Shown here: positions 10,980 through 54,491 of the stretch, piece by piece
Position numbering within the stretch: the first letter of the stretch is position 1
How the letters are laid out: the number at the start of each line of letters is the position of its first letter
Source of the DNA: Candidatus Polarisedimenticolia bacterium
GTDB lineage: Bacteria; Acidobacteriota; Polarisedimenticolia; Gp22-AA2
Direction of reading: 5' to 3'
Assembly: GCA_036001465.1 (NCBI GenBank)
Contig: DASYUH010000040.1
Location: forward strand, 11,466 to 75,465
DNA: 64,000 bases
Translations under genes and position numbers: made by a program
Notes under the pieces: model-generated
Told to the model about the DNA's origin: nothing
The model's input: only the letters and a program-made list of their open reading frames with translations
Database searches by the model: none

Positions 10980-11001
10980 ACTAAAATAGAAGCGGGTCAT
11001 C

Positions 11002-11847: not shown

Positions 11848-11871
11848 TCCGGGCATTCGGCCGGGCCGCGC

Positions 11872-24164: not shown

Positions 24165-24225
24165 TCTAACCCCAGACCTCCGGGCGTCGCCGGCACGGCC
24201 TGGCATGCTATACTTTTTTCTTCCT

Positions 24226-24900
24226 ATGGACAGAACCTCGATGGGACGGCTTCTCGGCACGCTTCTGATCCTCCTCCCGACCGCCCTCGTCGCGGCGGGG
24301 GATCCGCCTGCTCCTCCACCCGCCACGAAGACCGGGGCGGGAGAGGGACCGGCCGCCGCCCCCGGGGCGGATGAAACACTGACGGTCGAGCTGCACTCCG
24401 GGATCCCCGGCATGGCGTTCATCGGCCAGTCGCTCGACGATCTCCTGAAGAAGTTTCCCGGCGCCGACGTCACGGCGTTCGCCGGGCAGGATGACGCGGT
24501 CACCGTGAAGGTGCCGGCCGTCGGGATCTCCTGTATCGCCGTCGGCGCTCCCGACAGCCTGAAGGTCGCGTCGGTGGGCTTCAACCTGGAAGGGGCGTAC
24601 GAGGGGATGAGCGAGGGACATTTCAGGACAGGCAAGGGGATCGGCAAGGGCTCGACGGTCAACGACCTGCTCGAGGCCTACGGTCCGCCCATCGATCTGA
24701 TGTCGGCCCGCCCTCGCGGCGTGGCGCCCCGGGCGGACGCGAACGTGGATCCGTCCGTGCCGCGCAAGTATCAGTACGTCAACGAGAGCGGCTCGGTCCG
24801 GACCTATTTCTCGGTGGAGAACTACCGCGTGACCCGGATCGTGGTCAACGAGCTCGCGCCGCTGGAACGGCACCTGCTCAAGGGGCGCCCGAAGAACTGA
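24226..24900 (+). CDS. Hypothetical secreted protein
   Basis: Signal peptide MGRLLGTLLILLPTALVAAG followed by a Pro/Ala-rich linker. No recognised domain. Confidence 0.45.
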   Translation: MDRTSMGRLLGTLLILLPTALVAAGDPPAPPPATKTGAGEGPAAAPGADETLTVELHSGIPGMAFIGQSLDDLLKKFPGADVTAFAGQDDAVTVKVPAVGISCIAVGAPDSLKVASVGFNLEGAYEGMSEGHFRTGKGIGKGSTVNDLLEAYGPPIDLMSARPRGVAPRADANVDPSVPRKYQYVNESGSVRTYFSVENYRVTRIVVNELAPLERHLLKGRPKN

Positions 24901-26149
24901 CGTCATCGGCCCCCGGCCCCGGTGCGTTCCTCCCCAGGCCCTTCCAGAGCCAGAGACCCGACCCGGCAGTCGCCAGGATGGCCGCCGAGACCAGGTAGGG
25001 GTACGTGGGGTGGGGGCCATACAGCGACCCCGCCACGATCGGCCCCAGGATGCGACCGGCGGAGTCGAACGAATCCATGATCCCGATGGCGGCCCCCCGG
25101 CCGCGCGTCGTCCGCTTGGTGATGAGCGAGGCGTTGGTCGGCCGCATGACCTGGTTGCCGACACCGCTGATCAGCAGCGCCGCCGTCAAGCTGATGCGCC
25201 CCGACGCCGCGACCACGAGCAGAAAGCCGAGCGCGTTGACCAGGAGCCCCGCCAGCATCACGTTCTCCTCCCCCATCGCCTGGATGAGGCGACCCAGCAG
25301 GACCCCCTGCACCAGGAAGACGGCGGTCCCCATGAACAGGAACATCGTTCCCATGTCGTGCGCGCCGTAGCCGAAGCGCGCCTGGATGAACAGCGGGAAG
25401 ATGGACTCCAGCGCCGCCATGGCGAAGGTGACGAAGAACGCAACGAGATAGAACGGCAGGAGCGGGCTCCCCAGGGCGCGCAGCGGCCACGACCGGCGCG
25501 CCGCGGACTCGATGGAAATCGGCGTTTCGGCGAGGGCCTGCAGCACGGTGGTCACGCCGTCCGCCTCGGGCGCCGGACCGGCCGGGGTCGCCCGCGTCCC
25601 CAGGCTCTCGCGCAGGAGCACGGCGGCCAGCAGGCAGGTCAGCAGATTGAGCGCCGCGGCCGCCAGAAACGGCACACCGTGCCCGAAGCGCGACAGGATG
25701 CCGCCGAGGGCCGGCCCGAAGATGAACCCGAGCCCCATGGCCGCGCCGAGATATCCCATCCCTCGGCCGCGGCTCTTGTCGTCGGTCACGTCGGCGACGT
25801 AGGCCATGGCGGAGGGGAGCGCCGCCGAGGACATGAGACCCGACAGGGCGCGCGCGGCGTACAGCATGGGAAGCGTCGAGGAGATCCCGTACAGCGCCAG
25901 GCCGGCCGCGTTCCCCAGCAGGCCGAGGAGCAGGACCGGCTTGCGGCCTGTGCGATCGGACAGGCGCCCCCAGAACGGCGCGCAGAGAAACTGCATCAGG
26001 GAGTAGAGCGTGAACAGCAGGCTGATCTGGAACGAGGACGCGCGGAGCGCCTGGGCCTGGTAGGCGATATTGGGGATGATGATCCCGACGCCCAGCATGA
26101 GGAGGAACAGCGTCAGGAAGAGGACCGCGAGCGCCCGCCCGTTCAGCAC
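24878..26149 (-). CDS. MFS transporter (drug-efflux / TetA-like)
   Basis: 12 TM helices. MFS motif in GRLSDRTGRKPVLLLG. Confidence 0.85.
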   Translation of the reverse strand: MLNGRALAVLFLTLFLLMLGVGIIIPNIAYQAQALRASSFQISLLFTLYSLMQFLCAPFWGRLSDRTGRKPVLLLGLLGNAAGLALYGISSTLPMLYAARALSGLMSSAALPSAMAYVADVTDDKSRGRGMGYLGAAMGLGFIFGPALGGILSRFGHGVPFLAAAALNLLTCLLAAVLLRESLGTRATPAGPAPEADGVTTVLQALAETPISIESAARRSWPLRALGSPLLPFYLVAFFVTFAMAALESIFPLFIQARFGYGAHDMGTMFLFMGTAVFLVQGVLLGRLIQAMGEENVMLAGLLVNALGFLLVVAASGRISLTAALLISGVGNQVMRPTNASLITKRTTRGRGAAIGIMDSFDSAGRILGPIVAGSLYGPHPTYPYLVSAAILATAGSGLWLWKGLGRNAPGPGADDVSSSGAP

Positions 26150-29129: not shown

Positions 29130-30329
29130 TCATGCCGATCCCCGCGCCTCGCCGCGCGCCTCGACGTACATCGGCGAGATGGATCGCAGCCGGCGCACCG
29201 CGCCGTCCACGCGCTCCACGACCTCGTCCACCTCCTCCCGGGTGTTGAAGCGTCCGAGACCGAAGCGGATGGAGGTGACCGCCTGCTCGTCCGTGCGGCC
29301 CATGGCCCGCAAGACATGCGACGGCTCCTTCTTCGCCGAGGTGCAGGCCGACCCGGACGACACGGCGATGCCGTCCAGGGCGGTCATCAGCGACTCCCCC
29401 TCGACGTGGGCGAAGCTGAGGTTGAGATTGTTCGGAAGCCGGTCGACCGGGTGGCCGTTCAGCAGGACATCGTCGAGCCGCCCGACGATCCCCTGGTGCA
29501 GCCGATCGCGCAGCGTCCGGATGCGCCGCGACTCCTCCGGCATCTCGGCGAGCGCGATCTCGGCCGCCGTGCCGAAGCCGACGATGCCCGGGACGTTGAG
29601 CGTCCCGGAGCGCAGGCCGCGCTCGTGTCCGCCTCCGAGCAGGATCGGCTCCAGGACCACGCGCGGGTTCTTGCGGCGCACATAGAGCGCGCCGACCCCC
29701 TTGGGGCCGTACACCTTGTGCGCCGACAGCGACAGGAGGTCGACGCCGGCCGCCTGCACGTCCACGGGAACCTTGCCCGCCGCCTGGGCCGCATCGCTGT
29801 GGAGCAGCACGCCCCTCTCCTTGCAGATGCGGCCGATCTCCTCGAGAGGATGCAGTGTGCCGACCTCGTTGTTGGCGAGCATCAGGGAGACCAGCACGGT
29901 GCGATCGCCGATCGCCCGGCGCAGGTCGTCCGGGTCGACCCGGCCGTGCTCGTCGACCGGCAGGACCGTCACCCGCGCGCCGCGGGTCCTGAGCCTCTCG
30001 ATCGGATCGAGCACCGCGTTGTGCTCGGTGGCCCCCGTGACGACGTGGTCGCCCCTGGCGCGCAGCGCCTCGAAGACTCCGAAAATCGCCAGGTTGTTCG
30101 ACTCGGTGGCCCCCGAGGTGAAGACGATCTCCTTCGGGTCGGCGCCGATCAGGCGGGCCAGCCGGGTGCGCGCCCGCGTCACCGCCTCTTCCGCGCGCCA
30201 CCCGAAGACGTGCGTGCGCGACGCGGCATTGCCGAACTCGCGATCGAAGAACGGCAGCATCGCCTCGACGACCCGCGGATCGACGCGCGTCGTCGCGTGG
30301 TTGTCCATGTACACCGCCATCCACGTCAT
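29130..30329 (-). CDS. iscS: Cysteine desulfurase
   Basis: PLP Lys in SLSAHKVYGPKG and catalytic Cys in SSGSACTS. ATGA overlap with the iscR stop. Confidence 0.9.
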   Translation of the reverse strand: MTWMAVYMDNHATTRVDPRVVEAMLPFFDREFGNAASRTHVFGWRAEEAVTRARTRLARLIGADPKEIVFTSGATESNNLAIFGVFEALRARGDHVVTGATEHNAVLDPIERLRTRGARVTVLPVDEHGRVDPDDLRRAIGDRTVLVSLMLANNEVGTLHPLEEIGRICKERGVLLHSDAAQAAGKVPVDVQAAGVDLLSLSAHKVYGPKGVGALYVRRKNPRVVLEPILLGGGHERGLRSGTLNVPGIVGFGTAAEIALAEMPEESRRIRTLRDRLHQGIVGRLDDVLLNGHPVDRLPNNLNLSFAHVEGESLMTALDGIAVSSGSACTSAKKEPSHVLRAMGRTDEQAVTSIRFGLGRFNTREEVDEVVERVDGAVRRLRSISPMYVEARGEARGSA

Positions 30330-30745
30330 GTGCCGGACTCCTTGAGGGCGTCCAGGTCGCGGAGCGTCGTCCGACCCAGCACCTCGGCGATCTTCTTCTG
30401 CACCTCCAGGACCGGGCGGCCCCCGTCGCACCACCCTGCCCGGCGGCACTGCGCCGACGACTCGTGCGGGCAGCGGCTCCAGACCGGCCCCTCGATCGCC
30501 TCGATGATCTCCCGGATGGTGATGTCGGCCGGCGGCCGGGCGATCTGGTATCCCCCCTTGATGCCGTGATGCGAGGCGACCAGTCCCTTGCGCGCCAGTC
30601 TCTGGAGCAGCTTGGCCATCACGGCCGGCGGGACGCTGTAGCGTGCCGCGATCTCCCGCGCGCTCCGGTACGCTCCCGGCGGCGCCGCGCACAGGTGCTG
30701 AATCGCCAGGAATCCATAATCGGTGCGCCGGGACAGCTTGATCAA
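30326..30745 (-). CDS. iscR: Rrf2-family transcriptional regulator IscR
   Basis: Rrf2 HTH (MIKLSRRTDYGFLAI) and three Cys (SRCPHESSAQCRRAGWC). Confidence 0.85.
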   Translation of the reverse strand: MIKLSRRTDYGFLAIQHLCAAPPGAYRSAREIAARYSVPPAVMAKLLQRLARKGLVASHHGIKGGYQIARPPADITIREIIEAIEGPVWSRCPHESSAQCRRAGWCDGGRPVLEVQKKIAEVLGRTTLRDLDALKESGT

Positions 30746-30846
30746 GATCGCCTCTCAGCTGAGCCGCGCCCGCCCTTGGACGCGCTCAAGAATCGAGAAC
30801 ATATCCGACATGTATCGTCGTATATTACGTGGCGCTGAAAGGCCTG

Positions 30847-31104
30847 TCAAGCGCGGAGCGGCGGGGCGGGCGGGGCAGGCGCGTCGCGCTGAATCCTGCG
30901 GCTCTTGAGGTTCCGGAAGGCCGCATCCTGGTGGACAGGATAGGCCGCGCCCAGGTCAACCCAAAGCTTGAGGACTGTACCCTTGGCCGCGCCCGTCATT
31001 CGGCAGGTCGCCCGGATGGAGTTCCCTTCAATAGCGTCGCGACTACCTGAGCCCTCTTCTCTCTTGTCAGCTTGTTCATGCACTAAGCATGCTTGAGCTG
31101 TCAA
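30847..31104 (-). pseudogene. Possible remnant of a transposase/recombinase HTH (85-codon ORF) at the left edge of the low-GC islet
   Basis: NSIRATCRMTGAAKGTVLKLWVDLG resembles transposase N-terminal HTH segments. No catalytic domain follows. Speculative. Confidence 0.25.
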
Positions 31105-31138
31105 GGAAAGTCAAGCAGCATTTGTAGCGAAATATCAT

Positions 31139-31167
31139 TTGACTTCCTACTTTGTATTGAATAGTAT
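31139..31167 (+). promoter_or_regulatory. Sigma70-like promoter TTGACT-N17-TAGTAT upstream of the Fic gene
   Basis: TTGACT at 31139-31144, 17 nt spacer, TAGTAT at 31162-31167. AAGGGA SD lies 9 nt before the ATG at 31202. Sits in an AT-rich intergenic region. Confidence 0.55.
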
Positions 31168-31201
31168 CACTACGAAATATCTATTTAAGGGATATAACGC
31201 T

Positions 31202-32359
31202 ATGCTATTCAACACACCAAACCTAACCGCGAAAGACTTGGAAGTTGTTGCAAGAATTGATGATATCAAAAAACGCCTTGGCGTAGCAATTCGCGCTCCA
31301 AAGCGATGGATAGGTCTGCTGGCCAGGACCGCACTGGCAAAAGCCATCCAAGGGTCAAACAGCATCGAGGGTTACAACGTATCGATGGACGATGCCATCG
31401 CGGCGGTTGAGGGCGAAGAGCCTTTGGATGCAAAGACAGAGGAATGGCTTGCGGTGACTTCCTACCGCAGGGCTATGACCTACGTATTGCAACTCGCGTC
31501 AGACCCACACTTCGCCTATAGCAACGCAGTCATCAGAAGCCTGCACTTCATGATGCTTGAGTATGACCTTTCAAAACATCCCGGCGGCTGGCGGCCGGGG
31601 CCTATCTTCGTCAGGCGAGAAGCAACGGGAGAAATAGTCTATGAGGGACCACAGGCCGACGAAGTGCCAGCTCTCATGGAAGAGCTCGTCGAATCACTGC
31701 GAAAGGCAGACGCAGTGCCCGATCTGGTCACGGCGGCAATGGCTCACCTGAACCTAGTAATGATTCATCCTTTTTCAGATGGAAACGGAAGGATGGCACG
31801 CTGTCTACAGACGCTTGTTTTGGGTCGGCTTGGCGTTCTGGCCCCGGAGTTTTCTAGCATCGAAGAGTATCTAGGGAGAAACCGCGAGGCTTACTACCAA
31901 GTGCTGGCCTCCGTTGGCAGTCCAACATGGGCTCCTGACAGGGACGCGCATCCGTGGATTCGGTTTTGCATGAGCGCGCATTTCCTCCAGGCTTCACGAG
32001 TCCTTCGCAGAACAAAAGTCCTGGATCAGTTGTGGAGCGCTTTCGAAGAAGAGACGAAAAAGCACAAATTGCCAGACAGATGCATCTTGGCTCTTCTTGA
32101 TGCAACGTTCAGCGGTCGGGTTCGAAATCCAACCTATCGGAAAATGGCTGACATTTCCGATCAGGTAGCTGGCAAGGACCTTAGAGAATTAGTGCGTACT
32201 GGACTGCTAATCGCAGAGGGGGAGAAGCGAGGGCGCTCCTATGTAGTTTCAGATGCAGCCAAGAAGGCATCTGCACGTATCAAGATTCCAAAAATCATCG
32301 AAGACCCCTACGCTGAAGACACCGCATATCTGCCAGGGATCGCGCCAGAAGTCCTATGA
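31202..32359 (+). CDS. Fic-family protein (class II, N-terminal inhibitory motif), likely AMPylase
   Basis: Fic motif HPFSDGNGRMAR. N-terminal SxxxEG inhibitory motif (SNSIEG). Locally low GC. Confidence 0.85.
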   Translation: MLFNTPNLTAKDLEVVARIDDIKKRLGVAIRAPKRWIGLLARTALAKAIQGSNSIEGYNVSMDDAIAAVEGEEPLDAKTEEWLAVTSYRRAMTYVLQLASDPHFAYSNAVIRSLHFMMLEYDLSKHPGGWRPGPIFVRREATGEIVYEGPQADEVPALMEELVESLRKADAVPDLVTAAMAHLNLVMIHPFSDGNGRMARCLQTLVLGRLGVLAPEFSSIEEYLGRNREAYYQVLASVGSPTWAPDRDAHPWIRFCMSAHFLQASRVLRRTKVLDQLWSAFEEETKKHKLPDRCILALLDATFSGRVRNPTYRKMADISDQVAGKDLRELVRTGLLIAEGEKRGRSYVVSDAAKKASARIKIPKIIEDPYAEDTAYLPGIAPEVL

Positions 32360-32578
32360 CTTCCTAGACCATCGTGCCTTTGCCGCCACCCTGGCGATGG
32401 CCTTCCTCTTCTTGGCGCTAAGCCGCGCCGCCCTTGCCTTGCCGCCCTTGAGACCGCCAAGCCGTCCTAAAGCTACCGCCGCAGGGTTCTTTTCCCTGGG
32501 CGGGTCGGATGTGGCTTCCTGGACGATGGATGCGGCCAGCTGATTTGGGTCTGTCGGCTTTCTTGAGCGGTTAGGCAT
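32354..32578 (-). CDS. Small K/R-rich basic protein, putative nucleic-acid binding
   Basis: 74 aa ending GRLGGLKGGKARAARLSAKKRKAIARVAAKARW. Convergent with Fic, overlapping its stop by 6 nt. Function unknown. Confidence 0.35.
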   Translation of the reverse strand: MPNRSRKPTDPNQLAASIVQEATSDPPREKNPAAVALGRLGGLKGGKARAARLSAKKRKAIARVAAKARWSRKS

Positions 32579-32619
32579 GCCTCATGGTAGCATGAGTTCA
32601 ACCATCCAAGGGGGAATCA

Positions 32620-33039
32620 ATGAATCGGCACGGCGGCCTATGCGCGTTTGGACTATTCATGGCGATAGCATTCGGCAGCGTTCACGCGGCTGAAACCGAG
32701 CTAGAAAAACCGAAAGCGGTGAAGGACGGAGGGGTTTATGAGTTCTGCACACCCGATCCATCAAGACCGGCCGTTGGTCGGGACCTATACCAAGCGCTGT
32801 GCATCGCCTATCTGAGAGGATACGTCGACGGATTAGACATATCGTCAACGAAGATGGCGATGCTCACGTGTCTGCCGCCAGAAGGTGTGCGTGGCGACGT
32901 TCTCCAAGCGATAGTTGTCAAATGGCTCCTTCAGAATGAGTCTAGAGTTAAAGGGCAACTTACAACAGGCAAAATCGCAGTCATCGCAGCACTGTTAGAG
33001 GAATACGCCTGTCCTGACGCCACCAACAAGTCAAACTGA
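32620..33039 (+). CDS. Small secreted four-cysteine protein
   Basis: Signal peptide MNRHGGLCAFGLFMAIAFGSVHA. Four Cys. Low GC. Confidence 0.45.
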   Translation: MNRHGGLCAFGLFMAIAFGSVHAAETELEKPKAVKDGGVYEFCTPDPSRPAVGRDLYQALCIAYLRGYVDGLDISSTKMAMLTCLPPEGVRGDVLQAIVVKWLLQNESRVKGQLTTGKIAVIAALLEEYACPDATNKSN

Positions 33040-33942
33040 CCCACTACCGGGAGGAGCGGCGGCTTGCGTGTGCCGCTTCGCATGATAGGAGCTGCGCACG
33101 AGCGGCCCCGCCTCCACGTGGCGGAAGCCGTGCCGGAGAGCCTGGTCCCGCAGCTCGGCGAACTCGTCGGGGGGGTAGTAGCGGACGACGGGAAGATGGG
33201 AGAGCGTCGGCCGGAGATACTGGCCGAGAGTCAGGATCTCGACTCCGGCCTCGGCCAGCGCGGCGAACGTCTCCAGGAGCTCGTCGCGCTCCTCTCCGAG
33301 ACCGACCATGAGCCCGGTCTTCACCAACGGACGCGGCGCCTGATCTCTCCAGACGACCGCCTGGCGCAGGAGGCCCAGGGAACGCTCGAAGTGCGACCCC
33401 TGGCGCGCCTCCGGGTAGAGGCGGGGCACCGTCTCGATGTTGTGGCTGAAGGTGACCGGGCCCTCCGCCAGGATCGCGTCGAGCGGCCGCTCGACCCCGC
33501 GGAAGTCGGAGGTCAGGACCTCCACCTCGCATTCGGGGTTGCGGGATCTGACGGCGCGGATCACCGAAGCGACGTGCCCCGCGCCGCCGTCCGGCAGGTC
33601 GTCCCGGTCGACCATGGTGAGGACGGCGTGCTCCAGCTCCAGATGGCGCACCGCCTCGGCGACGTGCTCCGGCTCGTCCGGGTCGACGGCCCGGGGGCGC
33701 CCCGTGGCCACCGCGCAGAAACCGCAGCGCCGGGTGCAGGTGTCCCCGAGGATCATGAACGTGGCGGTCCGGTCGCCCCAGCATTCGTAGATGTTGGGGC
33801 AGCGGGCCTCCTGGCAGACGGTGTGGAGCTTCAGGCCCTGCACCATGCGGTGCAGGTCGCGGTAGTTCTCCCCGGTGTCGAGGCGAATCTTCAGCCAGGG
33901 GGGCTTCGGCCCCGGCAGCTCCGTCCGTGGCAGGCCGGACAT
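33031..33942 (-). CDS. lipA: Lipoyl synthase
   Basis: Radical-SAM CxxxCxxC (CTRRCGFC) plus N-terminal Cys cluster CQEARCPNIYEC. ATGA overlap with lipB. Confidence 0.95.
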   Translation of the reverse strand: MSGLPRTELPGPKPPWLKIRLDTGENYRDLHRMVQGLKLHTVCQEARCPNIYECWGDRTATFMILGDTCTRRCGFCAVATGRPRAVDPDEPEHVAEAVRHLELEHAVLTMVDRDDLPDGGAGHVASVIRAVRSRNPECEVEVLTSDFRGVERPLDAILAEGPVTFSHNIETVPRLYPEARQGSHFERSLGLLRQAVVWRDQAPRPLVKTGLMVGLGEERDELLETFAALAEAGVEILTLGQYLRPTLSHLPVVRYYPPDEFAELRDQALRHGFRHVEAGPLVRSSYHAKRHTQAAAPPGSGSV

Positions 33943-36076: not shown

Positions 36077-36091
36077 GGTCGGCTCCTTAGT

Positions 36092-37069
36092 TCAATAGGC
36101 CGCGAGCTGTCTCGCCGCCTTGAGGATCTTGTCCTTGTTTGGGAGGAAGAATTCCTCCAGCGGCGGACTGTAAGGGACGGGCGTATCCGGCGCGGTGACG
36201 CGCAGGACCGGCCCGTCGAGATACTCGAAGACCTCCTCGTTGATGATCGCGGCGATCTCCCCCGCGATGCCGCCCGTGCGCGTGTCCTCGTGCACCACCA
36301 GGACCTTCCCGGTCTTCTTCGCCGCATTCAGGATGGCGTCCTTGTCGAGCGGCAGGAGGGATCGCAGGTCGACCACCTCGGTCTCCACCCCCTCCTCGCG
36401 CGCCAGCACGTCCGCCGCCTCGAGCGCCTGATAGAGCATGGCGCCATAGGTCAGGATGGCCAGGTCCCGGCCCTCCCGCCGGACGGCGGCGACGCCGATC
36501 GGCACGACGTAGTCCTCCTTCGGGAGCTCCTCCTTGATCCGGCGGTAGAGGTATTTGTGCTCCAGGTAGATCACAGGGTCCTCGTCCCGGATGGCCGCCT
36601 TGATCAATCCCTTGGCGTCGTACGCCGTGGCCGGGGCGACCACCTTGAGCCCCGGGGTGTGCACGAAATACATTTCCGGGTTCTGCGAGTGGTAGGGTCC
36701 GCCGTGCACGCCGCCGCCGCTGGGGCCGCGGATGACCATCGGCACTCCCGCGCCCCAGCGATAGCGGTTCTTGGCGGCGAAGTTGGTGATCTGATCGAAG
36801 GCGCAGGAGATGAAATCGATGAACTGCATCTCGGCGATCGGCCGCATGCCCAGAAGCGCCGCGCCGATCGCCGCCCCGACGATCGCCGACTCGGAGATCG
36901 GCGTGTCGATGACCCGCGTCTCGCCGAACTTCTCGAGCATCCCTTCCGTCACCTTGAAGGCGCCGCCGTAGATCCCCACGTCCTCTCCCAGGATGAAGAC
37001 GCGCTGGTCGCTCTCCATCTCCTCCCAGATTCCCTGCCGGATCGCCTCCACGTACGTCGTCAGCGCCAC
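36092..37069 (-). CDS. 2-oxoacid dehydrogenase E1 beta subunit
   Basis: Transketolase-like pyrimidine-binding and C-terminal domains. 325 aa. Confidence 0.9.
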   Translation of the reverse strand: MALTTYVEAIRQGIWEEMESDQRVFILGEDVGIYGGAFKVTEGMLEKFGETRVIDTPISESAIVGAAIGAALLGMRPIAEMQFIDFISCAFDQITNFAAKNRYRWGAGVPMVIRGPSGGGVHGGPYHSQNPEMYFVHTPGLKVVAPATAYDAKGLIKAAIRDEDPVIYLEHKYLYRRIKEELPKEDYVVPIGVAAVRREGRDLAILTYGAMLYQALEAADVLAREEGVETEVVDLRSLLPLDKDAILNAAKKTGKVLVVHEDTRTGGIAGEIAAIINEEVFEYLDGPVLRVTAPDTPVPYSPPLEEFFLPNKDKILKAARQLAAY

Positions 37070-38208
37070 GCTTCGCTCTCCCCCTGCGGCCCGCCGCCCG
37101 CTCCCGGGCCGCCCTCATCATAAACCCCCTCCAGGCACTCCTCCGGCTCCGGATACGGCTGGCGCTCCGCCCAGGCCACCGCCTCGTCCAGCTCCGACTC
37201 GATGCGCGCCTCCATCTCGGCGAGGGCGGGCCGGTCGACGAGCCCGCGGCGCAGCAGGGCGGACTGGAGCCTCTCGATCGGGTCCTTGCGCCCCCACGCC
37301 TCGAACTCGGCCTTCGGGACGTAGCCGGCGTCGTCGTGGGCGGAATGACCGGTCATGCGGAACGTGACGAACTCCAGAAGGCTCGGTCCCTCGCCGCGAC
37401 GGGCGCGCCCGACCGCCCGGCCGACTCGACCGTACACGGCGAGCAGGTCGTTGCCGTCGGCCGTCTCGCCGGGAATCCCGTAGCCGACCGCACGGTCGGA
37501 GACGCGCCCGACCCGCATCTGGCGGGACACGTGCGTCGAGTAGGCATACTGGTTGTTGTTGCAGATGAAGACCACCGGGAGCCTCCGCACCGCGGCGAAG
37601 TTCAACCCCTCGTGCCAGTCCCCCCGGCTGGTGGCCCCCTCGCCGAAGAAGCAGAACGACACCTGGTCGGTGCCGCGCATCGCGAAGGTGAGCGCGCACC
37701 CGGCCGCGACCGGGATGCTGTCGCCGAGATGCGAGATGAACGCCACGATCCGGTGCCTCAGATCTCCCATGTGCATGTTCCCGTCGCGCCCGCGCGTCAA
37801 CCCGGTGCTCCGCCCCATGTACTGCGCCAGGATCCTCTCGGGCGGCACGCCCTGCATGAGGAAGACCGCCATGTCGCGGTGCGACGGGGAGACGATGTCG
37901 TCGCGATCCTCCCCCTCGCCCCGGCGGATGTGCACCGCCGCGCCGACCGAGATCGCCTCCTGGCCGCGCCCCACGTACACGCCGCCGACGATCTTTCCCT
38001 GCCGGTACAGCTTGCGCTCGATGCGGTACTCGAGCGCCCGGGTCAGCTTCATGGAATGGAGCATCCTGAGGAGCAGGGCGTCGTCCGGCGCCGGCATGTC
38101 CTCGTCCTCGAGGCGGGAGGCGGGAAGCGTCGTGCCCTCCACACGCGGCACGCCCCGTGGACGTCCCCTTCCCCCCCTTCCGGACCCGGCCGTCAGCTCG
38201 GCCCTCAT
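37060..38208 (-). CDS. 2-oxoacid dehydrogenase E1 alpha subunit (copy 1)
   Basis: TPP-binding GDGAT/NNxY region (FGEGATSRGDWHEGLNFAA...ICNNNQYA). ATGA overlap with the copy-2 stop. Confidence 0.85.
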   Translation of the reverse strand: MRAELTAGSGRGGRGRPRGVPRVEGTTLPASRLEDEDMPAPDDALLLRMLHSMKLTRALEYRIERKLYRQGKIVGGVYVGRGQEAISVGAAVHIRRGEGEDRDDIVSPSHRDMAVFLMQGVPPERILAQYMGRSTGLTRGRDGNMHMGDLRHRIVAFISHLGDSIPVAAGCALTFAMRGTDQVSFCFFGEGATSRGDWHEGLNFAAVRRLPVVFICNNNQYAYSTHVSRQMRVGRVSDRAVGYGIPGETADGNDLLAVYGRVGRAVGRARRGEGPSLLEFVTFRMTGHSAHDDAGYVPKAEFEAWGRKDPIERLQSALLRRGLVDRPALAEMEARIESELDEAVAWAERQPYPEPEECLEGVYDEGGPGAGGGPQGESEAWR

Positions 38209-39278
38209 GTCGCCTCGTGATAGACGTCGCGCAGCGTCTCCTCAGGAGGCGGGAACGGGCTCGCCAGCGCTTTCTGCGCCGCCTCCTCCAGCCCGGGCTC
38301 GAAGCCTTCGCGGACCGCGCGCAGGCTCGCGCTCGTGGCGTGCCCCTCGTCCACGAGGAACGCCTCGAAACGGTCGAGCGGATCATGCTTCTCCCAGGCC
38401 GCGATCAGGGCCTTGGGGACGTAGCGCATGTCGTCGTGCTCCGCGTGGCCGCGGCGCCGGAACGCCCGGCACTCCAGGAGAGTCGGGCCCTTCCCGCGGC
38501 GTCCCCGTTCGGCGGCGCGCCGTGTCGCGTCGTACACCGCCAGCACGTCGGTGCCGTCCACGGATTCCGAGGCGACGCCGTACGCCGGGCCCTTCTCCGC
38601 GAGGCTCTCGACCGCGTACTGCGCGGGCGTCGGGGTCGAGTAGGCGTAGCCGTTGTTCTCGACCACCAGGATCAGCGGCAGGCTCAGGACCGCCGCCAGG
38701 TTCAACCCCTCGTGAAAGTCGCCGGTGGACGTCCCGCCGTCGCCGATGTAGGTCAGCGCCACGCGCGACTCGCCGCGCATCCTGGCCGCCAGGGAGGCCC
38801 CCGTCATCACCGGGATGAGGGTCCCCAGGACGCTGATCGGCCCGATGATCGAGCGCTCCAGGTCGTCGAAATGCAGCGTGCCGTCCTTGCCCCCGGTTGG
38901 CGCGTCGTGCCGCGCCAGGAATTGCAGGAACAGGGTCAGGGGGGGCACGCCCCGTACCAGGAGCGAGCCGATGTTCCGGATCATCGGCGCCAAAAGGTCG
39001 TCGGGGAGGAGGGCGTACGCCGAACCGACCGAGATCGCCTCCTGCCCCAGGCTGCTGTAGAGGCCACCGACGATCTTCCCCTGCCGGTAGAGCGCCGACA
39101 GCTTGTCCTCCAGCATCCGGTTCAGGCGCATGAAGGCATGGAGCTCGAGGAGGCGAGCGCGCGACAGCCCGGGGTTCCGCATCGGCGCCCGGGACGGCGG
39201 AGCGAGGCGGGCGGCAAGACCCGGGCCGCGCCGGGACGCGGGCGGGCGTTTTCTGCCACTCTTGAGGACGGCGCTCAT
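38205..39278 (-). CDS. 2-oxoacid dehydrogenase E1 alpha subunit (copy 2, paralog)
   Basis: Same family (IGDGGTSTGDFHEGLNLAA...VENNGYA). Start at MSAVLKS has a GGGAGG SD. Confidence 0.8.
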   Translation of the reverse strand: MSAVLKSGRKRPPASRRGPGLAARLAPPSRAPMRNPGLSRARLLELHAFMRLNRMLEDKLSALYRQGKIVGGLYSSLGQEAISVGSAYALLPDDLLAPMIRNIGSLLVRGVPPLTLFLQFLARHDAPTGGKDGTLHFDDLERSIIGPISVLGTLIPVMTGASLAARMRGESRVALTYIGDGGTSTGDFHEGLNLAAVLSLPLILVVENNGYAYSTPTPAQYAVESLAEKGPAYGVASESVDGTDVLAVYDATRRAAERGRRGKGPTLLECRAFRRRGHAEHDDMRYVPKALIAAWEKHDPLDRFEAFLVDEGHATSASLRAVREGFEPGLEEAAQKALASPFPPPEETLRDVYHEAT

Positions 39279-39291
39279 CGGCCTCCCGGGA

Positions 39292-40701
39292 TCAGAGGTG
39301 GATGCCGCGGGCATGCAGGGCGAGGGCGGCCTCCCCCATCGCCTCGGACAGCGTCGGGTGGGCATGGATGGCGTGGAACAGGTCCTCCACAGTCGCCTCA
39401 AGGTGGAGCGCCAGTCCTCCTTCGCCGATGAGCTCCGTCGCCTTCGGGCCCACGATGTGGATTCCGAGCAGCTCGTCGTAGCGCTCCTCCCCCACCAGCT
39501 TGATGAACCCGTCCTGGGCCAGGACGATGCGTCCCTTGCCGAGCACCGGAAGCGGAAAGCGGCCGGTGCGCACCTTGTGGCCGCGCGCCCGCGCCGCCGC
39601 TTCGGTCAGACCGACGCTCGCGACCTCGGGCTCTGAGTAGGTGCAGTTCGGCACCCGGTCGTAGTTGATGGGCGCGGGGTTCTTGCCGGCGATCGCCTCG
39701 ACCGCCACCAACCCCTCGTGCGAGGCGACGTGGGCCAGCGCCGGCGTCGGCACCAGGTCCCCCACCGCGTACACGGACGGGTCCCCCGTGCGCATCTGGC
39801 CGTTCACCTTGACGAAGCCGCGATCGAGCTCCACCTTCGTCACCTCGAGACCCAGGTCGTCCGTCAGGGGGCGGCGGCCGACGGCCACCAGGAGCACGTC
39901 GGCCTTCAGGGTCTCCTTCCCCCCCTTCTCCGACTGCACCTGCACCTCGACCCCCCGATCGCCGACCTTGACGCTCTCGACCTTCGTGCCCACGCGGACA
40001 TCGATGCCGCGCCTCTTGAACGCCTTGTGCAGCTCGGCGGAGGAGTCCTCGTCCTCGATCGGCAGCACCCTCGGAAGCATCTCGACGAGCGTGACGGCGC
40101 TGCCGAAGCGCGCGTAGATCGAGGCGAACTCGACCCCGACCGCTCCGGCCCCCAGGATGAGCATCGCCTTCGGGACGAACTCCAGGGCCAGCGCCTCGGT
40201 GCTGGTGATGACACGCGTGCCGTCCGCCTTCACGCCGGGAATCATCTTGGGAACGGACCCGGTCGCCAGGATCACGTGCCTGGTGGCGAGGGTCTGCTTC
40301 GATCCGTCGCGGGCCGTCACCTCGACCTTCCCCGGCCCCTTCAGGCGCCCGTGTCCCTGGAAGACGGCGACGCCGTTCTTCTTCATGAGGAACTCGACGC
40401 CCTTCGCCTGGCGGCGGACCACGTCGGTCTTGTGCTTGTGCACCGCGGCGAGATCGAGCTTGACGTCCCCGGTCTTCACCCCGAAGCGCGCCGCCTCGCG
40501 GGCCAACTCGAGGACCTCGGCGCTGTAGAGCAGGGCCTTGGTCGGGATGCACCCGACGTGCAGACAGGTCCCGCCGAGGGCGGCCCCCTTCTCGACGAGG
40601 GCCGTCTTCAGGCCGAGCTGGGCGGCCCTGATCGCGGCGACGTAGCCGCCCGGCCCGCTGCCGATGATGGTGACGTCGAAGCTCGCCTGCGAATCGGCCA
40701 C
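39292..40701 (-). CDS. lpd: Dihydrolipoyl dehydrogenase (E3)
   Basis: FAD motif GSGPGGY, redox disulfide GGTCLHVGCIP, C-terminal HAHPTLSE. GTG start at 40701 with GGAGG 7 nt upstream. Confidence 0.9.
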   Translation of the reverse strand: MADSQASFDVTIIGSGPGGYVAAIRAAQLGLKTALVEKGAALGGTCLHVGCIPTKALLYSAEVLELAREAARFGVKTGDVKLDLAAVHKHKTDVVRRQAKGVEFLMKKNGVAVFQGHGRLKGPGKVEVTARDGSKQTLATRHVILATGSVPKMIPGVKADGTRVITSTEALALEFVPKAMLILGAGAVGVEFASIYARFGSAVTLVEMLPRVLPIEDEDSSAELHKAFKRRGIDVRVGTKVESVKVGDRGVEVQVQSEKGGKETLKADVLLVAVGRRPLTDDLGLEVTKVELDRGFVKVNGQMRTGDPSVYAVGDLVPTPALAHVASHEGLVAVEAIAGKNPAPINYDRVPNCTYSEPEVASVGLTEAAARARGHKVRTGRFPLPVLGKGRIVLAQDGFIKLVGEERYDELLGIHIVGPKATELIGEGGLALHLEATVEDLFHAIHAHPTLSEAMGEAALALHARGIHL

Positions 40702-40862: not shown

Positions 40863-42539
40863 TTGATCGGCCCGAGCGGACGCCGGTATAATCCCGTCGT
40901 GACCCTTCCGGAATCCCGATCCGCCCCGAGATCCGCATCCGGCGCCAGCGGTTCCCGCTTCCTGTCGCCGCCGCCCGAGGTGCGGATCACCAACGCCTTC
41001 GCCGGGGCGTTCGACAACGTCGTGGCGACCGCGCGGACGTGCTACTCCGGCTCGGGGATCGTGCGCGACGAGCAGATCCTGGGGGACCCGCTGGCTCCGC
41101 CCGAGGCGCGCGCGGAGCGCGCCCGGCGCCGCGATACGCTGGCGCGCGACCTGTACCAGGCCGGCCACCACACGACGCTCCAGCACGCCCATTTCCAGTT
41201 CGCCCTGAGCAACGTCAGCCGGCAGTTCCTCTGGTCGTTCCTGCACAGCCATCCGTTCTACAACTCCGAGCAGGTCAGCCAGCGGTACGTGACGGTCAAG
41301 CCCGGCCATTACGCGGTCCCCCCGCTCGCCGGCCGGGCGCTCCAGGTCTACGAGGAGACGGTGGCCCTGCAGCAGCAGGCCTATGAGGACCTCTGCCGTC
41401 TCCTGCAGGGTCCCGTGTCGTCCGCCTATTACGCACGCTACCCGGCGCGCCGGCACTATCCGAAGAAGTACGAGAAGGAGGTGCAGAAGAAGGCGCAGGA
41501 GGTGGCGCGCTACGTCCTGCCGATCGCCACGTTCGCCTACCTGTACCACACCATCAGCGGGCTGACTCTGCTGCGCTACTACCGCACCTGCCTGGTCCCG
41601 GACGCGCCCCTGGAGCAGCGCCTCGTCGTCGGCCGCATGGTGGAGGAGCTGCTCGAGCGCGAGCCGGCCTACGCCGCGATTCTGGAGCAGCCGATCCCGG
41701 AGGAGGAGACGGCGGAGCACCGGGCGATGCAGGAGCACGCGGCGCGCGACGACGAGGGCCGGAAGTCGTTCCTCGAAGGGTTCGACCGGCAGCTCGGCGA
41801 CCGCGTGTCGCTCCTGGTGGACTATCCGGCCCACAACGAGGAGACGCTCGCGCAGTCGGTCCGGGAGGTCCTCGGCGTCGCGCGCGGGCGGCTGGCGGAC
41901 GACGAGGCGATCGCCCTGGCTCTCGACCCGGCCCGCAACGGCTATCTGGGCGAGGCGCTGAATCTCACGACGCTGTCCAAGCTGTCGCGCGCCCTGGTGC
42001 ACTGCCATTACACATTCCGCAAGCGCCTGAGCCACACCGCCGACTCGCAGAACCAGCGGCACCGGATGACCCCGGCTTCGCGGCCGATCCTGAACGCGCA
42101 CCTCACGTCCGAGCCGGACTTCGTGACGCCGATCCTGGTCGGGCAGGACGGGCCGAGCCTGAAGCGCTACCGCGAGGCCATGGAGGCGAGCTGGGACGGG
42201 TTCTCCCGCCTCCGCGCGCTCGGCGTGAGCGACGAGTTCGCCGCGTACGTTCTCCCGAACGCCCTGGCCATCCGCTTCACCGAGTCGGCCGGCCTTCTCG
42301 ACCTGCACCACAAGCACGCCATGCGCCTGTGCTACAACGCCCAGGAGGAGATCTGGCGCGCCTCGCTGGACGAGGCGCTGCAGATCCGCGCGGTGAACCC
42401 GCGCATCGGCCGCTACCTGCTGCCGCCCTGCAACATCCGGCAGATGGCGGCATCGCGGCCCATCTGCCCCGAGGGCCGGCGCTACTGCGGCGAGCGCGTC
42501 TGGACCTACCGGCTCGAAGACTACCGTCGCGTCATCTGA
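40863..42539 (+). CDS. thyX: Tandem-fused double ThyX-like protein (two flavin-dependent thymidylate synthase-like domains)
   Basis: Half 1 aligns to the T. maritima ThyX core (HxTxxHxxFxF, FLHSHPFYNSEQVSQRY versus FRHRIASYNELSGRY, ARYVLP). Half 2 has an intact QRHR motif, an insertion, SLKRY, and AAYVLPNALAIRF...AQEEI. Confidence 0.65.
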   Translation: MIGPSGRRYNPVVTLPESRSAPRSASGASGSRFLSPPPEVRITNAFAGAFDNVVATARTCYSGSGIVRDEQILGDPLAPPEARAERARRRDTLARDLYQAGHHTTLQHAHFQFALSNVSRQFLWSFLHSHPFYNSEQVSQRYVTVKPGHYAVPPLAGRALQVYEETVALQQQAYEDLCRLLQGPVSSAYYARYPARRHYPKKYEKEVQKKAQEVARYVLPIATFAYLYHTISGLTLLRYYRTCLVPDAPLEQRLVVGRMVEELLEREPAYAAILEQPIPEEETAEHRAMQEHAARDDEGRKSFLEGFDRQLGDRVSLLVDYPAHNEETLAQSVREVLGVARGRLADDEAIALALDPARNGYLGEALNLTTLSKLSRALVHCHYTFRKRLSHTADSQNQRHRMTPASRPILNAHLTSEPDFVTPILVGQDGPSLKRYREAMEASWDGFSRLRALGVSDEFAAYVLPNALAIRFTESAGLLDLHHKHAMRLCYNAQEEIWRASLDEALQIRAVNPRIGRYLLPPCNIRQMAASRPICPEGRRYCGERVWTYRLEDYRRVI

Positions 42540-51275: not shown

Positions 51276-52151
51276 TCAAGGCAACGCCTGCGGCGCCTCC
51301 GCGGCGATCGCCTCGAGCGCCAGGCGGGCGGTGGCGCGGATCTCGTCCCCCTGCCCCGAATCAGCCGCGCGTTTCAGCGCGGCGCGGGCGGCATCGTCCT
51401 TGAGCAGGGCCAGCGCCCGGATGGCATTGAGGCGCGCCGAGGTGTCGACCGGCTCCCCCGCGCCGGACCCGCCCCCCTCGAGGATGCCGATCAGCACCGA
51501 CTCGCCCGAGCCGTCCCCCAGGCGGGCCAGGGACAGCGCCGCGTTCCAGCGCACGCTCAGGGTCGCGTCGCGCAGGGCCGACCTCAGGGCGTCCGCCCCT
51601 TCATGGTCCCCCAGCTCTCCCAGCGCGAAGACGGCCATGGTGCGGACGCCCTCGTCCCGGTCCCCCACCGCCGCCCGAAGATCCGGGAGGGACGACCGGT
51701 CGCCGACCTGCATCAGGCCCCAGGCGCAGAAGAGTCGCGTTGCGCCGTCCGGATCCTGCAGCCCCTCCTTGAGGGCCGGGCCCGCGCGCGCGTCGCCGGA
51801 CCGCCCGAGGGCCAGGGCCAGATAGCGGCGCAGCTTCGGGTCCTCGCCGGCCTCCCGGAAGGCCGCGGCCAGCTCCGGCGCCAGGGCCGCCCCCCCGTCG
51901 GCCGTTCCGGAGCGCACCGCGAGGGAGAGGTCGTATCCCGACTGCCAGCGCTTCGGATCGCCGGCCCACGGCAGGAGGAACCGCGACGGGCCCTTCAGGT
52001 GCTCGAGCGTCGCCCGCGGGTCGGGATGGCGGGTGCGCAGGACCTGGAGCCCGAAAAAGACGCTGACCAGGACCGCGACGAGACCGAGCGGCACGATGAA
52101 AAACTGCAGCACGACCTTCCAATCGCTCTTCTCGTCCCGGTCCGTCGTCAT
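51276..52151 (-). CDS. Membrane-anchored HEAT-repeat (PBS-lyase-like) protein
   Basis: N-terminal TM helix, then repeated LG/ALG...AxxAL HEAT-like units. Confidence 0.6.
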   Translation of the reverse strand: MTTDRDEKSDWKVVLQFFIVPLGLVAVLVSVFFGLQVLRTRHPDPRATLEHLKGPSRFLLPWAGDPKRWQSGYDLSLAVRSGTADGGAALAPELAAAFREAGEDPKLRRYLALALGRSGDARAGPALKEGLQDPDGATRLFCAWGLMQVGDRSSLPDLRAAVGDRDEGVRTMAVFALGELGDHEGADALRSALRDATLSVRWNAALSLARLGDGSGESVLIGILEGGGSGAGEPVDTSARLNAIRALALLKDDAARAALKRAADSGQGDEIRATARLALEAIAAEAPQALP

Positions 52152-52158
52152 GCGGTCC

Positions 52159-52620
52159 TCAGGCGGTCCGCGGGCGGCGGTCCACCGCCTCCTGGATGTG
52201 GATGTCGAAGGGGCCGTGCTCCGGGTTCCGGCGGAACCCCCGGTGGATCGTGCCGCAGCCGTAGCACAGGGTCGCGTCCCCGAGAGCGACATAGAGCGCG
52301 AGGTCGATGATCGTGGCGGCGAGCAGGCTCAATCCCCAGGTCGGGATGCTCAGGGCCGCGGCCACGATGAACACCCAGAGTCCCGTCTTCTTGTTGAAAT
52401 CCTTCTGCACGTACAGCCGGGCGAGCCCGCAGCGCACGCAGCGGGACAGGAGCCGCGTGTCGAGCCCCGCCCCGGTGGCGTCCAGGTCGTGCGCGCGCCC
52501 GCACCCGGGACAGGCGACCCGCGCCAACGGCGCATCCAGCGGATGGACGAGCTCCCGCTCGCAGCCGTCGCAGAGAAACGCCGCGCTCGGCGGCCGGGCG
52601 CCCCGCGCGTCCCGCTTCAC
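52159..52620 (-). CDS. Zinc-ribbon + two-TM membrane protein (hypothetical)
   Basis: CDGC...CPGC and CVRCG...CYGCG Cys pairs flanking two TM helices. GTGA overlap with the upstream gene. Confidence 0.45.
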   Translation of the reverse strand: MKRDARGARPPSAAFLCDGCERELVHPLDAPLARVACPGCGRAHDLDATGAGLDTRLLSRCVRCGLARLYVQKDFNKKTGLWVFIVAAALSIPTWGLSLLAATIIDLALYVALGDATLCYGCGTIHRGFRRNPEHGPFDIHIQEAVDRRPRTA

Positions 52621-53408
52621 ATCGGTCCCGCGCCGGCCACCGTCAGGTAGCGGGCCAGGAACTCGCCGTACATCACGAAGATCACGGCGATGTAGAGGAT
52701 CCCCGTCGCCGACTGCGTCGAGCGCATGCGCGCCGTCTCGTGCACCATGAAGGCGAACACCCCCGGCCCCAGAATCCCGAAGAGGATCCTCTGCCAGAAG
52801 AAGAATCCCCGATCGATCGCGGCGGCCCTCAGGTACGACCCCATCCCGAGCTCCGATTGCGCGCCGGCGCCGATCAGGCCGGCCGCGAAGAGCACCGCCC
52901 GCCCGAGAACCGCCGCGGCGAAGAAGCGGGCGAACACCACCAGGTGCGACACGTCCAGGCGGGTCCGGACCAGGTACCAGTGGCCCAGGAGCATCCCCAC
53001 GATCACCGAGCCGAGGAGGGCCGAGGCGCAGACCGCGTTGACTCCGAAGGCCCACGACGGTCCCGGGGCGCCCGCACCGGCGCGGCCGTCCGCCGCGACG
53101 GTCGCGAGCGCCACGGCCGCGGTCGTCACCAGGAGTCCCCGCGAGGAGCGGCCCCCGCGCAGCGCCAGCAGCGCCGCCACGTAGGCCATCACCAGGACCA
53201 TGGCGAGGAGGGCCAGGATCGACGCGGCGGACCACACCCCCTGCGAGGAGAACCGGTACGGGGCCGCGAGGCAGAGAAGAAGGAACGCCAGGCTGGCGTT
53301 CAGGATGAAGAAGAAGCGTCCGAGCTCGCCGAAGGGAGCGAGCGGGAGCGCCGCCAGGATGCCGGCGGCGGCGCAGGTGAACAGACCGATCGCGATCGCC
53401 GCCGCCAC
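52617..53408 (-). CDS. Polytopic integral membrane protein (hypothetical)
   Basis: About 8 TM helices. No recognised family. Confidence 0.5.
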   Translation of the reverse strand: MAAAIAIGLFTCAAAGILAALPLAPFGELGRFFFILNASLAFLLLCLAAPYRFSSQGVWSAASILALLAMVLVMAYVAALLALRGGRSSRGLLVTTAAVALATVAADGRAGAGAPGPSWAFGVNAVCASALLGSVIVGMLLGHWYLVRTRLDVSHLVVFARFFAAAVLGRAVLFAAGLIGAGAQSELGMGSYLRAAAIDRGFFFWQRILFGILGPGVFAFMVHETARMRSTQSATGILYIAVIFVMYGEFLARYLTVAGAGPM

Positions 53409-53465
53409 GTGCCCGCCCCTCCGGAGCGCGAAAGAATAGCACAGCCCAGGAAGCGCCCCGGAGAC

Positions 53466-54491
53466 TTACCCGCCGATCTGCCACATCTTTCGCGGGAGCC
53501 GTTCCTGGTAGTACTGGTGGAGGTCCAGGCACCCGCCCGCCTCCTTGCCGCGAACCGCCGTGCGGAGGGCGAGGGCGATCTCGGAGTCGGTGCCGCCTCC
53601 GCGCAGCAGGGCGGCAAGGTCGGTCTCGGTGCGGGAGAAGAGGCAGGTGCGAATCTTGCCGTCGGAGGTCAGCCGGATCCGGTCGCAGTCGCCGCAGAAC
53701 GGCTCGGTGACCGGGTTGATGAATCCGATGTCCCCTGCGCCTCCGGCGAGGCGGAACACGTTGGCCGGTGACGACGGGCGATCGCGGCCCACCGGCACGA
53801 GCGGGTGGATCGCCTCGACGCGACGCCGGACCTCGCTGCCCGGGACCAGACGTTCCGTTTCGAACGGCTCCCCTCCGCCCAGAGGCATCATCTCGATGAA
53901 ACGCACCTGGTAGGGACGGCGCCACGCCCAGTCGACGAAACGCGGAATCTGGTCGTCGTTGATCCCGCGCAGAAGAACGATGTTGATCTTGATCGGCACG
54001 GCGCGGAACCGCTCGAGCTCGACGAGCCCCTCGAGGACCATGTCGAGGCTGTTCCGCCGGCTGACCGCGGCGAACCCGGCCGGATCCAGGGAGTCGATGT
54101 GGACGTTGAACCGGCCGACCCCGGCCTGAAGGAGCGGTTCCGCCAGCTCCTTGAGCAGGAGGCCGTTGGTGGTGATCGCCAGGTCTTCGATTCCATCGAT
54201 CCCCGCGATCCGGCGCGCCAGGACCGGCAGGTCGCGGCGCATCAGCGGCTCCCCTCCGGTCAGCCGGATCTCGCGGACCCCGAGCGTGGCGAGGATGCGC
54301 GCCACGCGCTCGATCTCCTCGAAGGTCAGGATGCGGTCCTTCTCGAACCAGGCGATGGGTCCCGCGGGCATGCAGTAGAGGCAGCGCAGGTTGCAGCGAT
54401 CGGTCACGGAGATGCGCAGGCTGCGGACGACGCGCGCGAAACGGTCGACGAGCGGACCGCGCAGGTCGGGGCTGTCCACGGTGGCCGTCAT
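53466..54491 (-). CDS. moaA: GTP 3',8-cyclase (molybdenum cofactor biosynthesis protein A)
   Basis: Radical-SAM CNLRCLYC and C-terminal CGDCDRIRLTSDGKIRTC cluster. Confidence 0.9.
   Translation of the reverse strand: MTATVDSPDLRGPLVDRFARVVRSLRISVTDRCNLRCLYCMPAGPIAWFEKDRILTFEEIERVARILATLGVREIRLTGGEPLMRRDLPVLARRIAGIDGIEDLAITTNGLLLKELAEPLLQAGVGRFNVHIDSLDPAGFAAVSRRNSLDMVLEGLVELERFRAVPIKINIVLLRGINDDQIPRFVDWAWRRPYQVRFIEMMPLGGGEPFETERLVPGSEVRRRVEAIHPLVPVGRDRPSSPANVFRLAGGAGDIGFINPVTEPFCGDCDRIRLTSDGKIRTCLFSRTETDLAALLRGGGTDSEIALALRTAVRGKEAGGCLDLHQYYQERLPRKMWQIGG

Follow-up and report, generated by a model that had tools for sequence, protein, structure and literature searches.

A fused double-domain ThyX protein from a Candidatus Polarisedimenticolia genome, with its active-site residues divided between two ThyX folds

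We analysed a stretch of 64,000 nucleotides (the window; G + C content approximately 70%) from contig DASYUH010000040.1 of a Candidatus Polarisedimenticolia (Acidobacteriota) metagenome-assembled genome (MAG). The window contains a fused double-domain thyX gene (40899..42539, + strand), the product of which comprises two ThyX folds in one chain, derived from an old internal duplication. The residues that make up the active site of canonical ThyX are divided between the two folds, and the protein is probably a flavin-dependent thymidylate (dTMP) synthase with a housekeeping function, which belongs to the duplicated type and works as a pseudo-tetramer with two sites. The fused architecture is already known from a large annotated family and was noted in 2009; the gene in the window is a routine, correctly annotated member of that family. 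An identical protein at NCBI (P0001, 546 amino acids (aa), 100% identity) is labelled 'FAD-dependent thymidylate synthase', where FAD stands for flavin adenine dinucleotide. The open reading frame (ORF) itself is uninterrupted from 40863 to 42539 (+), 558 aa counted from a TTG codon. Residues are numbered below along this 558-aa ORF; subtraction of 12 gives the numbering of the 546-aa protein.

The whole protein matched the Pfam profile Thy1 (PF02511) in two stretches, with 158.6 bits. Each half also matched separately: residues 1–300 scored 100.4 bits over positions 8–190 of the 191 in the profile and residues 301–558 scored 63.7 bits over positions 47–186, both above the Thy1 cut-off of 24.8 bits. 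We built a family profile for each half, in both cases from 24 diverse members. The N-half profile found the structure of Mycobacterium tuberculosis ThyX (E=1e-18), and the C-half profile found PDB entries 3ge9/3fnn (E=1.3e-13). BLASTP of the N half against the C half gave no similarity. With hhalign, 185 columns of the two could be aligned, starting from the first strand of each fold, with E=1.3e-5 and a probability of 80%. An AlphaFold2 model of the monomer, made with 91 homologues, was compact (mean predicted local distance difference test score (pLDDT) 79.6, predicted template modelling score 0.83) and showed one order of strands and helices occurring twice, with a two-helix linker in between. 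When this model was compared to the PDB, ThyX chains were the sole matches, all of at most 246 residues, and no solved structure of a fused ThyX was found. An earlier reading of this DNA, made without database searches (the sequence-only reading), had proposed a tandem double ThyX, and the proposal is borne out by both halves independently. The N-terminal Thy1 domain runs from 41004 to 41666 (+; residues 48–268) and the C-terminal one from 41808 to 42410 (+; residues approximately 316–516). They are separated by an inter-domain linker of approximately 42 aa (41682..41807, +), with modelled helices at 272–280 and 285–299 in the 546-aa numbering. On the residues described below, we refer to a 'substrate-recognition' role for the N domain and an 'RHR/flavin-side' role for the C domain.

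To place the catalytic residues, the ThyX sequence of Thermotoga maritima (Tm) was aligned to the family alignment of each half. The Tm sequence was checked against PDB 1KQ4, and the mutants H53D, R90A, E144R and R174K in the PDB confirm its numbering. Conservation was counted in 69 family members with 30–60% identity to the query. Six N-domain residues, H102, R120, S139, R141, E213 and R216 (Tm H53, R74, S88, R90, E144 and R147, respectively), were present in 69/69 members. At the corresponding positions the C domain has Leu (H53) and Ser (R74), is variable (S88 and R90), partly keeps the Glu (E144) or has Ala/Tyr (R147). Q137 and Y142 of the N domain, the equivalents of Tm E86 and Y91, were each found in 64/69 members, the Gln being as in M. 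tuberculosis; the C-domain counterparts are hydrophobic and variable, respectively. The reverse pattern was seen for Tm Q75, R78, R80 and R174, which correspond to Q396, R399, R401 and R488 of the C domain (each 69/69). Here the N domain is variable (Q75), has Leu (R78) or Ser/Ala (R80), or is again variable, with Cys in the window protein (R174). Tm H79 corresponds to H128 in the N domain and to H400 in the C domain (66/69). The window protein carries every residue that is invariant in the family.

In the N domain these residues lie in four short motifs. GHHTTLQH (41163..41186, +) contains H102 and has no equivalent in the C domain. A degenerate RHR, L127-H128-S129-H130-P131 (41241..41255, +), follows, in which Tm R78 is replaced by L and R80 by S, and then the substrate-recognition peptide YNSEQVSQRY (41259..41288, +), with Q137, S139, R141 and Y142. 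EVARYVLP (41499..41522, +) provides E213 and R216, the latter belonging to the clamp on the phosphate of deoxyuridine monophosphate (dUMP). The N half reads ...SFLHSHPFYNSEQVSQRY... (residues 125–142), without an Arg at the RHR positions and with S139, R141 and Y142 present; likewise, in the motif region of the first half, ...FLHSHPFYNSEQVSQRY..., the RHR positions are devoid of arginine and S-Q-R-Y is retained. Among the 69 members Arg was not one of the five commonest residues at the RHR-position columns of the N domain. The sequence-only reading had described exactly this combination, a degenerate LHSH next to YNSEQ..SQRY.

The intact QRHR that it had placed in the second half is also there, as Q398-R399-H400-R401. 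It is part of Q396-N-Q-R399-H400-R401 (42048..42065, +), which combines the RHR with the equivalent of Tm Q75. Further along the C domain, MRLCYNAQEEIW (42321..42356, +) holds R488, the counterpart of the uracil-contacting Tm R174, and C490, the first of the invariant cysteines. The C-terminal AxxVLP...AQEEI helices are present as well (...AAYVLPNA... and ...NAQEEIW...). Two details of the sequence-only reading did not hold. It had seen an insertion of approximately 30 aa after the RHR, but in 51/69 members the next invariant Pro follows the RHR at a distance of 21 residues, as in M. tuberculosis ThyX. It had also pointed out an SLKRY motif, in which the Ser is found in 4/69 and the Arg in 7/69 members, indicating coincidence. 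We considered this pentapeptide as a displaced S-x-R-Y and rejected it; it sits in the following helix, and both spacing and non-conservation argue against it. The C half has lost the S-x-R-Y element. The RHRx7S motif is thus complete in no single domain: the RHR occurs only in the C domain and the Ser/Arg only in the N domain.

The active site of canonical ThyX is formed where three monomers of a 222 tetramer meet (PMC3498832; PMC5954106). In the co-crystal of PolB, a related enzyme, one monomer gives Phe79, Arg82 and His83 to the phosphate, while Arg86 and Arg193 (listed unprimed) touch the ribose O3' and the pyrimidine O2; the neighbouring monomer supplies Glu94', Ser96', Ala97', Arg98' and Arg166' (PMC5003785). 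Converted to Tm numbering with offsets of +8 and +19, which are internally consistent, the first PolB set corresponds to R74, Q75, R78 and R174 and the second to E86, S88, R90 and R147. Because the residues of the fused protein split along these contributions of two monomers, the first pocket role is assigned, on alignment, to the C domain and the second to the N domain, with the R74 position as sole exception. The suggestion that two complementary, partly degenerate domains had been fused is thereby upheld, and the split is sharper than first stated, since it follows the roles of neighbouring monomers.

Since each domain keeps just one set of residues, the likeliest working unit would be a homodimer of fused chains. 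We propose that an ancient internal duplication gave two ThyX folds per chain and that the catalytic residues have since been divided between them. The dimer would form a pseudo-tetramer with a true 2-fold instead of 222 symmetry, and would contain two complete composite sites, each combining a C domain with an N domain, from its own or the other chain, and probably with a further N domain that contributes H102. With six key residues missing at once, the remaining two sites would be vestigial, and a stoichiometry of one FAD per chain is predicted. An asymmetric pseudo-tetramer of this kind was also put forward in the sequence-only reading, and it is what the distribution of residues would lead one to expect. 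It is conceivable that all four pockets are functional, or that the 'RHR-side' pocket of the N domain has a regulatory or nucleotide-binding function, with non-canonical residues taking the place of the arginines. The N domain does retain the invariant R120 (Tm R74, M. tuberculosis R87), an invariant His128 and a near-invariant R238. However, the reciprocal pocket would have to work without the equivalents of R78, R80, R174, S88, R90 and R147 together, and the columns in which Arg was lost are hydrophobic or variable, with no conserved basic substitute. We consider both possibilities unlikely.

On the explanation preferred here, the gene would encode the flavin-dependent thymidylate synthase (ThyX/FDTS) of the organism, converting dUMP to dTMP. 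The dUMP-contacting residues named for ThyX and PolB are all present collectively, and they are invariant; essential residues are therefore not missing from both halves. Of the Acidobacteria in the COG table, 6/6 have ThyX and 0/6 have ThyA. Neither a thyA nor another thyX was found in the 64-kb window (for which an approximate Escherichia coli ThyA sequence served as probe) or within 6 kb of the gene in 80 related loci. Outside the Dehalococcoides, the duplicated ThyX is the only ThyX of the Chloroflexi (Valas & Bourne, PMC3224940). The size of the family and its retention in MAGs of the candidate phyla radiation (CPR) and of DPANN archaea support purifying selection and a housekeeping role. 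CPR and DPANN are groups with very small genomes.

Several observations weigh against this reading. The score against the thyX equivalog TIGR02170 was 82.6 bits, under the curated cut-off of 87.9. The split is not fully clean, as it is the N domain, and not the C domain, that has the (invariant) equivalent of Tm R74, and that of H79 is present in both. The equivalents of Tm N163 and R165, which we take to be FAD contacts in the T. maritima structure, are conserved in neither half; flavin binding may therefore differ from the textbook case. For members of the fused family the searchable literature yielded no data on activity, oligomeric state or cofactor, and a thyA elsewhere in the genome is possible, the search having covered the 64-kb window. 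Some of these points would fit a ThyX-derived flavoenzyme with an altered substrate or reaction (a UMP or dCMP C5-methylase like PolB, or another nucleotide modifier), with the real synthase encoded elsewhere in a genome inspected over 64 kb. The score below the equivalog cut-off and the unconserved positions are in its favour, as is PolB itself, a ThyX fold that accepts other substrates. Against it stand the collectively complete and invariant set of dUMP contacts, the fused form being the sole ThyX reported in several phyla without ThyA, its retention in CPR/DPANN MAGs, and a location among housekeeping genes that are not conserved, without the context of a biosynthetic cluster. Such a change of substrate seems improbable to us, and dTMP synthesis by a dimer with paired N and C domains remains the preferred, though predicted, function.

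The fused form is widespread. Nearly all of the best 120 homologues listed at NCBI were 519–573 aa in length. When 1.84 billion cluster representatives were searched exhaustively, at least 320 clusters at 50% identity reached E<=1e-30. Of the best 150 clusters listed, the majority align over the full length in a single stretch of approximately 500–560 aa, down to approximately 33% identity. In GTDB species genomes, scanning revealed the fused form at 576 or more loci, in Acidobacteriota, Verrucomicrobiota, Planctomycetota, Ignavibacteriota, Kryptonia, Chlorobi (Prosthecochloris), Nitrospirota, Gemmatimonadota, Myxococcota, Chloroflexota and others. The most divergent branches were those of Patescibacteria/CPR and of DPANN archaeal MAGs. 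Across the family the complementary pattern of residues is invariant and four cysteines are conserved. Since sequencing errors can fuse tandem paralogues, we also considered that the double length might be an artefact, i.e. frameshift-fused genes, a misassembly or a pseudogene. The collinear homologues in these species genomes and clusters, some of them on complete chromosomes from long reads, rule this out. Together with the conserved linker and tail and the compact AlphaFold2 model, they leave an artefact with practically no likelihood.

The family also crosses domains of life (P0172, P0193, P0231, P0252, P0263 and neighbours), since some members are assigned to Nanoarchaeota, Aenigmarchaeota and a 'Thaumarchaeota' MAG; this implies that it is very old or has spread widely by horizontal transfer. 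One separate clade, typical of Patescibacteria/CPR, is extended at the N-terminus by approximately 40 aa. In 2009 Valas & Bourne described a "duplicated ThyX" as "not characterized" (PMC3224940), and no later characterisation of it was found in the searchable literature.

Beyond the Thy1 match, the protein has a family-specific C-terminal tail of approximately 45 aa (42411..42536, +) that has no counterpart in canonical ThyX. The tail carries three invariant cysteines (...LLPPC523...PIC535PEG.RYC542GERVW...). The fourth, C490, lies within the C domain, two residues past the uracil-binding R488. Conservation was 69/69 for C490, C523 and C542 and 68/69 for C535 (42330–42488 in the window). Their spacing is C-x32-C-x11-C-x6-C, without CxxC pairs, and the AlphaFold2 confidence of the tail was low (pLDDT 57–64). 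A search with the Cys tail in Pfam and the PDB gave no match. The four cysteines may form a metal site, with either Zn or an iron-sulfur (Fe-S) cluster. On the conservative reading, the metal would be a structural zinc that fastens the tail to the helix of the active site. A redox-active Fe-S cluster in place of structural zinc is a speculative option to which we give little credence. If present, such a cluster could be an electron-entry route or a redox/oxygen switch, without parallel in the canonical NADPH-dependent ThyX. Were the pseudo-tetramer with two sites obligate as well, the fused enzymes would make up a class of thymidylate synthase with a mechanism of its own, serving whole phyla (Acidobacteriota, Chloroflexota, the Planctomycetota-Verrucomicrobiota-Chlamydiota (PVC) group, CPR and DPANN).

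The start codon of the gene is probably GTG 40899. A sigma-70-like promoter (TTGATC, 18 nt, TATAAT; 40863..40892, +) was identified by a consensus scan; it agrees with the consensus at 10/12 positions, and one such site was found in this stretch versus 0.1 expected in shuffles. The TTG of its -35 hexamer is the codon that had been taken as the start in the sequence-only reading. We set TTG 40863 aside in view of this overlap with the -35 box, the start of the identical NCBI protein at GTG 40899, and the onset of conservation in the fused family at 'RFLSPPPEV' (ORF residue 32). As 6 nt separate the end of the -10 box from the GTG, the thyX transcript may have little or no leader.

Divergently upstream of thyX lies a 2-oxoacid dehydrogenase cluster that ends in lpdA. 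Directly downstream, on the same strand, is a gene for a TrmB-type tRNA methyltransferase, followed by genes for a Rieske ferredoxin, a peroxiredoxin (bcp) and a lyase of the fumarase/aspartase family. The arrangement of lpdA upstream and trmB, Rieske and bcp downstream is shared, among the 80 related loci, with the closest relatives only (L001–L003). No neighbourhood or redox partner gene conserved across phyla was found in these loci. In approximately 16–24 of the 80 loci (e.g. L024, L027 and L049), an ORF of more than 1100 aa is located upstream of the fused thyX; the N-terminus of one of these ORFs looked Mfd-like by eye.

Some further features of the window were recorded. The dehydrogenase cluster contains two adjacent paralogues of E1_dh, the 2-oxoacid dehydrogenase E1 component, with a 4-nt overlap (37060–39401, -), upstream of an E2 gene and downstream of lpdA. 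The ORF at 36087–37121 had no Pfam match in the frame tested and may be an E1 beta subunit in a neighbouring frame. The region 30800–33050 has a G + C content of 0.60–0.62 versus approximately 0.70 in the background and is possibly a small acquired islet. It lies between genes for an IscS-like cysteine desulfurase and a LipA-like protein, and holds a 406-aa ORF (31139–32359) with a Fic-type motif (HPFSDGNGRMAR) in addition to small ORFs. A small ORF upstream of the IscS-like gene (30326–30745) looks like an Rrf2/IscR-type regulator. AT-skew spikes of +0.15, +0.13 and +0.21 were seen at 10001–12000, 24001–26000 and 52001–54000, respectively. No tRNA genes or Rfam matches were found in the whole window.

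For the window itself, then, the finding is an ordinary housekeeping gene. ThyX is an antibacterial target with a textbook multi-subunit active site, and the fused form is a natural test of the model in which three subunits build that site. If the rule of which subunit gives which residue is hard-wired in the fused enzyme, evolution would thereby provide independent confirmation of subunit sharing. For asymmetric mutagenesis the fused protein would also be a handy scaffold, as a change can be made in one site and its symmetry mates left intact. In addition, very large groups of mostly uncultured organisms seem to use the fused form as their thymidylate synthase: soil Acidobacteriota, Chloroflexota, Planctomycetota, Verrucomicrobiota, CPR and DPANN. 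The family is seemingly unstudied structurally and biochemically, unless the ThyX of Chlamydia belongs to it.

Chlamydia trachomatis ThyX (CT632), approximately 529 aa long, has the size of the fused family and may belong to it. Griffin et al. reportedly characterised this enzyme biochemically in 2005 (J Biol Chem). If CT632 belongs to the fused family, an enzymatically characterised representative exists and the novelty falls further. In the GTDB scan other PVC phyla carry the fused ThyX. No Chlamydia names were among the clusters examined, and 30 divergent representatives and a search from the most divergent member led to CPR/DPANN. Chlamydial ThyX has been called too divergent for inclusion in ThyX trees (PMC6171736).

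The 'duplicated ThyX' of Chloroflexi and 'a few other species' (PMC3224940) has the same architecture as the protein described here, and two Chloroflexota/Anaerolineae loci (L076 and L080) encode full-length relatives with 57% identity. The description in that paper takes one sentence, without analysis of residues, a distribution beyond 'a few species' or mention of the cysteines. PolB, the UMP/dUMP C5-methylase of Streptomyces cacaoi (PDB 4P5A/4P5B), shares the ThyX fold and the same pocket residues. It differs in being a single-domain homotetramer, in its preference for UMP and in the location of its gene within an antibiotic cluster.

Canonical ThyX (T. maritima TM0449, M. tuberculosis Rv2754c and PBCV-1 A674R; PF02511) has the fold that is common to both halves of the fused protein. 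Overall, the two have the same set of residues in contact with dUMP, H53, Q75, R78-H79-R80, E86/Q, S88, R90, Y91, E144, R147 and R174, and the chemistry is predicted to be equal, with FAD, methylenetetrahydrofolate (CH2H4folate) and NADPH. Unlike canonical ThyX, the fused chain has two folds with a full RHRx7S in neither, a linker between them, and a tail that carries three of the four cysteines. Canonical ThyX is a homotetramer with four sites, whereas the fused protein is predicted to be a dimer in which at most two of the four pockets can be complete.

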